Shown here: piece after piece, positions 1,338 to 1,620 of the stretch | Position numbering within the stretch: the first letter of the stretch is position 1 | Layout: each line of letters starts with the position of its first letter | DNA from: Escherichia coli | Lineage (GTDB): Bacteria > Pseudomonadota > Gammaproteobacteria > Enterobacterales > Enterobacteriaceae | DNA length: 64,000 nt | Assembly: GCF_003018235.1 (NCBI RefSeq) | Contig: NZ_CP027437.1 | Direction: 5' to 3' (one strand) | Position numbers and translations under genes: made by a program | The notes under the pieces: generated by a model | The model's input: the letters and a program-made list of their open reading frames with translations, nothing else | Databases searched by the model: none | Told to the model about the DNA's origin: nothing

Positions 1338-1420
1338 TCCTCCCTCCGGGAAAACACAGAAAAATTTCAGCAATACCCCCGGTGAGAATGGATGCAACAG
1401 GGGAAATGTTTACCGCTGCC

Positions 1421-1526
1421 CTGTAAACATTTTGCGAGAAAAGGGTATAAACATTTTTCTCCCGCAACATAATGAATTCAAAAGTAAAAAACGCAGAAAA
1501 TCATCATAATGGTATAAACATGTTTA
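1421..1526. repeat. three copies of GTAAACAT(T/G)TT motif in HNH-terS intergenic region; putative packaging/cos-proximal binding sites
   Basis: motif copies at about 1421, 1444 and 1512. Confidence 0.3.
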
Positions 1527-1620
1527 TAACTTCTGAACGGGAATTTTTTCTCTGCATGAGAGGGGGCGCGGTGTCCGTGGCGATCGTCTTTTTTGCCGGA
1601 AGATACCCCCCCGGGTCTGG

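Follow-up and report, generated by a model that had tools for sequence, protein, structure and literature searches.

We read the repeated TAAACAT motif between the HNH endonuclease gene and the small terminase gene (terS) of this prophage, with moderate confidence, as an array of candidate TerS binding sites that resembles lambda cosB and lies beside an HNH-type cos with a 3' overhang. This was the best-supported reading of the window, by which we mean the whole 64,000-nucleotide stretch of DNA that was analysed. It draws on the position of the copies, a phylogenetic footprint, a concerted base switch linked to the helix-turn-helix of TerS, and an N-terminal TerS domain that resembles SF6 G1P. 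The array would lie within the leading 160 bp of the packaged DNA, after the point of cos cleavage and before terS. Packaging signals of this kind are already known.

Gene setting and the predicted cohesive end

The minus strand of the window carries, in order, the HNH gene, a gap of 283 bp (1338-1620), terS and terL, with the HNH gene immediately upstream of cos. Pfam matches to the flanking genes bear out the gap of about 280 bp that an earlier note on this DNA had described between HNH and terS. Motif positions are also given as + offsets, where +1 is the left chromosome end (window 1560) and the count runs toward terS.

1621-1986, minus strand: HNH endonuclease gene (121 aa; Pfam HNH PF01844, E=6.5e-6, above the gathering score)
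1606-1612, minus strand: poly-G run (G7 in the gene sense) followed by TATC, at -52 to -46 from the predicted cut
1561-1570, minus strand: predicted 10-nt 3' cohesive end CGCGCCCCCT (cosN equivalent), from homology to Lys8385Vzw and L132
1538-1560, minus strand: conserved left-end block CTCATGCAGAGAAAAAATTCCCG with an A6 tract, +1 to +23
1173-1337, minus strand: terS codons 1-55, N-terminal helix-turn-helix domain (AlphaFold2 pLDDT 92-95)
759-1337, minus strand: terS (192 aa; Pfam Terminase_2, E=1.4e-6, residues 2-57, above the gathering score)
25-762 (ORF 10-762), minus strand: N-terminal 246 codons of terL (Pfam TerL_ATPase, above the gathering score)

Homologues of the 1621-1986 gene in relatives are also annotated as HNH endonuclease, and the terS start, an ATG at 1337 with GGAGGGAGGA just before it, matches the RefSeq annotation of relatives. 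The order seen with Pfam, in which HNH precedes terS and terL and the gap contains cos, is that of an HK97-type module. A prophage of E. coli O158:H23 (NZ_CP076709.1), in which terL measures 1662 bp, matched the window at 99% identity. Homology of the window terL to intact terL ends at base 24, and its frame of 250 codons stops at a TAA (10-12). The large terminase of the source prophage seems to have been interrupted by an insertion or rearrangement just left of the window. Because terL is cut off at codon 246, the window copy may depend on a helper phage for packaging, and this copy of the module may no longer be functional on its own. The gene strand of the gap showed no sigma-70-like promoter and no terminator, and no Rfam family matched the gap at E<=1; promoter, terminator and RNA readings of the gap were dropped on these grounds.

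The position of the cut was taken from relatives with defined DNA ends. [quoted passage not shown] Its record ends in ...GGACACCGCCCCCCCT and restarts with CTCACGCAGAGAAAAAATTCCCG, and this junction falls in a block homologous to window 1555-1575. A second end was observed in L132 (IMGVR_UViG_3300015186_000014), an IMG/VR contig of 42,956 bp from the related Salmonella FSL SP-016 family, which starts with an Illumina adapter tail (...GCTCTTCCGATCT) fused directly to CTCATTCGTAGAAAAAATCC (CTCATTCG), the same base as the chromosome end of Lys8385Vzw. The adapter, at bases 1-32, is a database contaminant that here marks a physical DNA end, and its junction is as expected after end-repair of a 3' overhang. 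In HK97, too, the two ends of the record lie between the HNH gene and terS. These three ends agree with the earlier note in placing cos within the HNH-terS gap.

By homology, the cohesive end of the window is predicted at 1570-1561, with the top-strand nick between 1561 and 1560. Across this predicted cut the window reads GGACACCGCGCCCCCT and then CTCATGCAGAGAAAAAATTCCCG, so that the left chromosome end would begin CTCATGCAG at window 1560. Compared with the homologues, the window was identical at 9 of 10 positions in the overhang and at 22 of 23 in the next block. Since the cut of the homologues maps to 1561/1560, the array falls after the cleavage site and before terS, the place that cosB occupies in lambda. 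The repeats themselves are not the cleavage site: the cut in the homologues is near HNH, and the repeats lie 34-158 bp inside the left end.

In all families, no other part of the gap was conserved as strongly as the region from the poly-G run to +23. Within it, the +1 to +23 block was nearly invariant in the lineage of the window (A lineage), in the Stx-phage lineage (T lineage) and in the Salmonella FSL SP-016-like family. The poly-G run was observed in all relatives, with 6-13 G, and its length differs among close relatives. Every family that we examined, HK97 included, has a poly-G run with (T)ATC 43-52 nt before the cos cut. The sequence GGGGGTAT (gene sense) occurs at 1603-1610, at the poly-G run, and again past S4 and ahead of terS, at 1373-1380 (+181 to +188); this latter copy is restricted to the window lineage and may be due to chance.

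Repeated sites, their conservation and competing explanations

The core TAAACAT was observed in five copies at four loci within 1403-1527 (125 bp), compared with eight copies in the rest of the 64 kb, counting both strands. The Poisson probability of five or more copies was 8e-12 (5e-7 when corrected for all window positions), and 5e-9 when the local base composition of the gap was used. The cluster is real. The loci and the spacer between the first two are listed below.

1514-1527, both strands: site S1, a perfect 14-bp palindrome ATAAACATGTTTAT made of two TAAACAT half-sites, +34 to +47
1465-1513, minus strand: S1-S2 spacer (about 56 bp) with T-tracts at +61, +70 and +78 (1480-1500) and an IHF-like ATTCATTATGTTG at 1465-1477
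1447-1457, plus strand: site S2, ATAAACATTTT (gene sense AAAATGTTTAT), +104 to +114, one mismatch
1423-1433, plus strand: site S3, GTAAACATTTT, +128 to +138, the sole exact match to the earlier pattern
1403-1413, minus strand: site S4, GTAAACATTTC, +148 to +158, one mismatch

The three copies in the earlier note, at 1423, 1447 and 1514, are real and clustered, while the inverted copy at 1403-1413 and the palindrome at 1514 had been overlooked. Of its strict pattern, GTAAACAT(T/G)TT, only 1423-1433 (+) was an exact match in the window, with four others each carrying one mismatch, including the two halves of S1 (1514-1524 on the plus strand and 1517-1527 on the minus strand). Sites S3 and S4 pair up as an inverted repeat of 10 bp whose arms are separated by 9 bp. 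S2 and the right half of S1 have an extended motif of 11-14 nt in common, with the A-lineage form ATGTTTATACC and the T-lineage form ATGTTAACTGG. The terS ATG lies at +224, placing the window sites 65-190 bp upstream of it. An isolated 9-mer, ATAAACATG, identical to the left half of S1, was observed at 2508-2516 on the minus strand, about 950 bp upstream of cos and 21 nt upstream of a small ORF (2322-2489, minus strand); about 0.5 matches of this type are expected by chance in 64 kb.

We aligned 55 distinct versions of the gap, with the window lineage represented by four members (the window, Ec48, STEC1587 and EcA34) and the Stx lineage by 51 sequences. All four loci were present at the same positions in every version. 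Within the window lineage, 2 of 47 motif columns were variable between +24 and +165, compared with 46 of 95 other columns (Fisher P=2e-8; P=9e-7 over +24 to +210). The 51 distinct Stx-lineage sequences varied in 1 of 47 motif columns and 15 of 95 other columns (P=0.02). Several conserved repeats therefore lie between the nick site and terS, as in a cosB of the lambda type.

The two lineages differ at one position of the core, and they differ there at every site. Each of the five half-sites is TAAACAT in the window lineage and TTAACAT in the Stx lineage, without exception in about 80 Stx-lineage loci and 120 more viral contigs, among which no mixed array was found. Symmetric paired changes keep S1 palindromic in both lineages (ATAAACATGTTTAT in the window lineage and GTTAACATGTTAAC in the Stx lineage), and the flanks of S1 and S2 are lineage-specific and shared between the two sites (ATGTTTATACC versus ATGTTAACTGG). 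Five parallel changes with the other core positions fixed are not expected of neutral drift. The concerted switch points to sites that must match one lineage-specific reader. A search for further motif variants with a pattern excluding the T-lineage base gave six matches, all of them chance occurrences in unrelated AT-rich contigs.

The FSL SP-016-like family has a different arrangement, with a gap of only about 40 bp between the cut and terS and a single palindrome that holds the terS start (GGAGGGTGTAAAC ATG TTA ACA, encoding M L T). The position of S1 is that of the terS start codon in these phages. The window and Stx lineages carry about 190 extra bp between this position and the present terS start, and S2-S4 lie within these extra bases. 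Because the palindrome of the short-gap family contains the terS start, its conservation there is partly explained by coding or ribosome-binding constraints. The ATGs inside the sites open mini-ORFs that are not conserved, encoding MFIPL before a stop in the window and running to 24 codons in the Stx lineage. In the latter (L001/L008), the ATG in the S1 palindrome opens a hydrophobic frame, MLTGCPGIFAVFIFIIQFVAWKKC, ending in a stop, which is probably not coding.

The short-gap family bears on two other explanations of the sites. They could be a regulatory operator through which TerS or another phage protein controls terS and terL, for example by autoregulation; the single palindrome of the FSL SP-016-like phages overlaps the ribosome-binding spacer and start of terS, a typical place for autoregulation, and the palindromic S1 and the inverted S3/S4 pair resemble classical operators. 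We consider this unlikely for the window, where the sites are well upstream of the terS start and the gene strand of the gap is free of promoter-like and terminator-like sequences. The late genes of lambdoid phages are, in addition, read through from an upstream late promoter. An operator can coexist with a packaging role.

The copies could also be inert relics of the terS start (AAC ATG TTA AC), duplicated when the roughly 190 bp were inserted. This would account for the positional homology between S1 and the start codon of terS in the short-gap phages, and for the fact that S1, S2 and S3 of the Stx lineage all read ATGTTAAC, which encodes Met-Leu-Thr, the N-terminus of TerS. Relics would hardly show a motif that is almost perfectly conserved while the spacers diverge at about 48% of columns, an inverted copy, a palindrome maintained through paired changes or a concerted switch, and the mini-ORFs that start from these ATGs have not been conserved. 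We regard the relic reading as very unlikely.

A weak match to an IHF site was observed in the spacer. The element, ATTCA(T/G)T(A/T)TGTTG at +84 to +96, has one to two mismatches to WATCAANNNNTTR, two of them in the window version, and its position is kept in both lineages (ATTCAGTTTGTTG in BP-4795). Phasing of the T-tracts is only partly kept in EcA34, and the remaining spacer varies freely. Although the match is weak, the spacer element resembles the IHF site or bend between R3 and R2 of lambda. The motif itself was also tried as an IHF site, which the earlier note had named as one possibility, and was rejected: WATCAANNNNTTR with its ATCAA core was not found in it, each copy having two mismatches that include the conserved C, and the Stx-lineage version was no better. 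Lambda cosB needs IHF, and S1, S2 and S3 are within two mismatches of WATCAANNNNTTR, yet binding of the sites by a host nucleoid protein (IHF or Fis) that bends cos DNA is the least probable of the explanations considered, given the mismatch at the conserved C of ATCAA, the equally poor fit of the Stx-lineage version, an estimated two such weak matches expected by chance in 226 bp, and the concerted switch of five half-sites with covarying flanks, which a host factor common to all E. coli leaves unexplained.

The TerS N-terminal domain as candidate reader

If the sites are a packaging array, TerS is the candidate to bind them. The AlphaFold2 model of TerS places helices at residues 4-14, 19-25, 33-41 and 44-55. 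The best fold match of the N-terminus in the PDB (Foldseek) was the DNA-binding domain of SF6 G1P (4zc3/2cmp), with a TM score of 0.81, an rmsd of 1.6 A and 28% identity. Weak phmmer matches of TerS to the 4zc3/2cmp chains agree with the Pfam assignment to Terminase_2. The protein has the N-terminal helix-turn-helix of the G1P fold that characterizes G1P-type small terminases.

The site switch travels with substitutions in this helix-turn-helix. The window lineage has R19, E25, E30, S32 and C35, where the Stx lineage has K, A, A, T and V, and in the model these five changes (R19K, E25A, E30A, S32T, C35V) fall in helix 2, the turn and the first turn of helix 3. Two members of the window lineage separate this domain from the rest of the module. 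Ec48 (L090, from E. coli strain 48) does not differ from BP-4795 over the HNH gene and as far as about the cut position, with the junction between BP-4795-type and window-type sequence near window 1562, approximately at the predicted cos cleavage position. Its HNH, cos core, TerS C-terminus and terL start are of the BP-4795 type. The sites of Ec48, and its TerS from residue 1 to about residue 40, are of the window type. EcA34 has a third HNH type, yet carries window-type sites and a window-type helix-turn-helix. Among the three packaging proteins in these sequences, only the N-terminal domain of TerS travels with the site type.

This linkage has limits as evidence of recognition. The sites and the TerS N-terminus are 70-300 bp apart, so co-inheritance is expected even without a functional link, and with only two array lineages the covariation of sites and TerS is a sample of two. 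No T-type sites with an A-type helix-turn-helix were found in viral contigs, and no A-type sites with a T-type helix-turn-helix in metagenome contigs, both weak tests, as the A lineage is absent from the two collections. A residue-to-base code was sought in the FSL SP-016-like family and was inconsistent, with E30/S32 accompanying TTAACAT in L148 and A30 accompanying TAAACAT in L143. Most sites of this family are A/T hybrids, and either A or T at the switch position may be tolerated. The lack of a simple residue-to-A/T rule in the single-site family weakens a strict specificity-switch reading.

It is a tentative and somewhat doubtful proposal that TAAACAT or TTAACAT together with the five TerS substitutions define two packaging-specificity groups within one prophage family. 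If so, packaging by an A-type terminase would be limited to cos DNA of the A type and that by a T-type terminase to the T type, and the split would decide which helper mobilises which co-resident, often defective, prophages. It would also provide a natural two-allele system for how TerS of the SF6 type reads DNA.

Our proposed model for the array as a set of TerS binding sites follows the layout in the gene direction, which is the HNH stop, the poly-G run, the nicked core CGCGCCCCCT, the A-tract block, S1, the spacer, S2-S4 and terS. A TerS oligomer would engage S1 and, over the bent spacer, S2-S4. From there it would anchor TerL, assisted by the HNH protein, on the adjoining core. TerL and HNH would make the 10-nt 3'-staggered cut, and packaging would run toward terS and terL. 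When the motor reached the following cos, array-bound TerS would stall it and trigger the final cut, a behaviour shown for HK97. In this model, TerS as the binder, the bending of the spacer and the role in initiation and termination are inferred.

The terminase may also, or instead of the repeats, contact the conserved block with the A-tract at +1 to +23. TerS of HK97 binds just downstream of the cut (PMC11331095, PMC9410871), at a single 15-bp site at +15 to +29 that is read through an arginine clamp and A-tract shape (PMC11331095). The +1 to +23 block of the window occupies the position of this HK97 site. HK97 is the only HNH-type cos for which TerS recognition has been solved, and as its TerS uses a single site, the equivalent A-tract block could be the true or main TerS site here.

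Known packaging systems and distribution of the array

Lambda cosB consists of sites R3, I1, R2 and R1, bound by gpNu1 and IHF. Work by Xin and Feiss (1993) is cited in PMC9611059. The window resembles lambda cosB in having, after the nicking site and before the gene for the small terminase, a group of short repeats that differ in orientation, a first site set apart by a possibly bendable spacer with a weak IHF-like element, and, as proposed here, a reader in the N-terminal helix-turn-helix of TerS. Several features differ from lambda. The window TerS is of the SF6-G1P/Terminase_2 type and not of the Nu1 type (its only Pfam match was Terminase_2), and the predicted ends have a 10-nt 3' overhang with an HNH partner, whereas lambda has a 12-nt 5' overhang and no HNH. 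The motif sequence is unrelated, and the first site of the window is a perfect palindrome.

HK97 (gp74 HNH, gp1 TerS, gp2 TerL) shares the order HNH, cos, terS, terL and the 10-nt 3' overhang predicted for the window. About 45 nt before its cut it also has a run of G with ATC after it (G10 plus ATC at L006 683-692, with the last G at -43). Unlike the window, HK97 has only 49 bp between the cut and terS and no repeat array. The window TerS showed no similarity to HK97 gp1 (BLASTP E=27), which is itself without a Pfam match. Homology of the cos sequences was also tested and rejected, as the alignment score of 51 was not significant against 41.6 +/- 5.8 for shuffles. The likeness of the two cos regions is confined to the poly-G plus ATC element and the geometry. 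The description "HK97-like", as used in the earlier note, is therefore apt for gene order and not for TerS or the cos sequence.

SF6 G1P gave the best structural match for the DNA-binding domain of TerS, and G1P of SPP1 and SF6 makes multiple contacts flanking the cut site (PMC9611059). SPP1 and SF6 differ in being headful (pac) packagers of Bacillus without an HNH partner, in having sites on both sides of the cut, and in their unrelated site sequences. Much closer are the homologous modules of Lys8385Vzw and of the BP-4795, 1717 and 2851 type, with 72-76% identity in the gap, 74-76% in TerS and the same four-site architecture. These modules differ in having TTAACAT at every site and K19/A25/A30/T32/V35 in TerS.

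Of 5426 complete E. coli genomes, 1252 had homologous gaps with 72-76% identity, up to seven in a single genome and roughly 2950 copies altogether. The module was observed in many Stx1a-, Stx2a- and Stx2c-converting phages and in BP-4795, 1717 and 2851; in STEC genomes it reaches up to seven copies. The window lineage is rare, occurring in about 20 of the 5426 complete genomes, and was absent from IMG/VR and the metagenome collection. Among 100,044 species representatives, the array pattern matched a single contig, from a MAG with the T-lineage (Stx-phage type) array. Only prophage-like copies were found in the plasmid collection. The repeats are not described in the paper on Lys8385Vzw (PMC7946995), and our literature searches turned up no account of them elsewhere.

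A recognition array would tell which DNA these phages package, which concerns the mobilisation of defective prophages, possible satellites and engineered cos plasmids. DNA recognition by TerS was called elusive and controversial in a recent review (PMC9611059), and four defined sites with two natural site and protein variants offer a convenient test bed for it. If the sites were dispensable, the finding would shrink to a conserved curiosity beside an already mapped cos.

A further difference among distant relatives was observed on the HNH side of the gap. Seven of them (L131, L134, L140, L147, L148, L155 and L165) carry an insert of 85-90 bp between the HNH stop and the poly-G run, at a distance of about 130 bp from the latter. 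Sequences that resemble Fur boxes occur in the insert, as do the inverted repeats TGAAATCATTTCA. Its best Fur-box match, in L155, was 17/19 to GATAATGATAATCATTATC; the window is without the insert, and its best match was 11/19.
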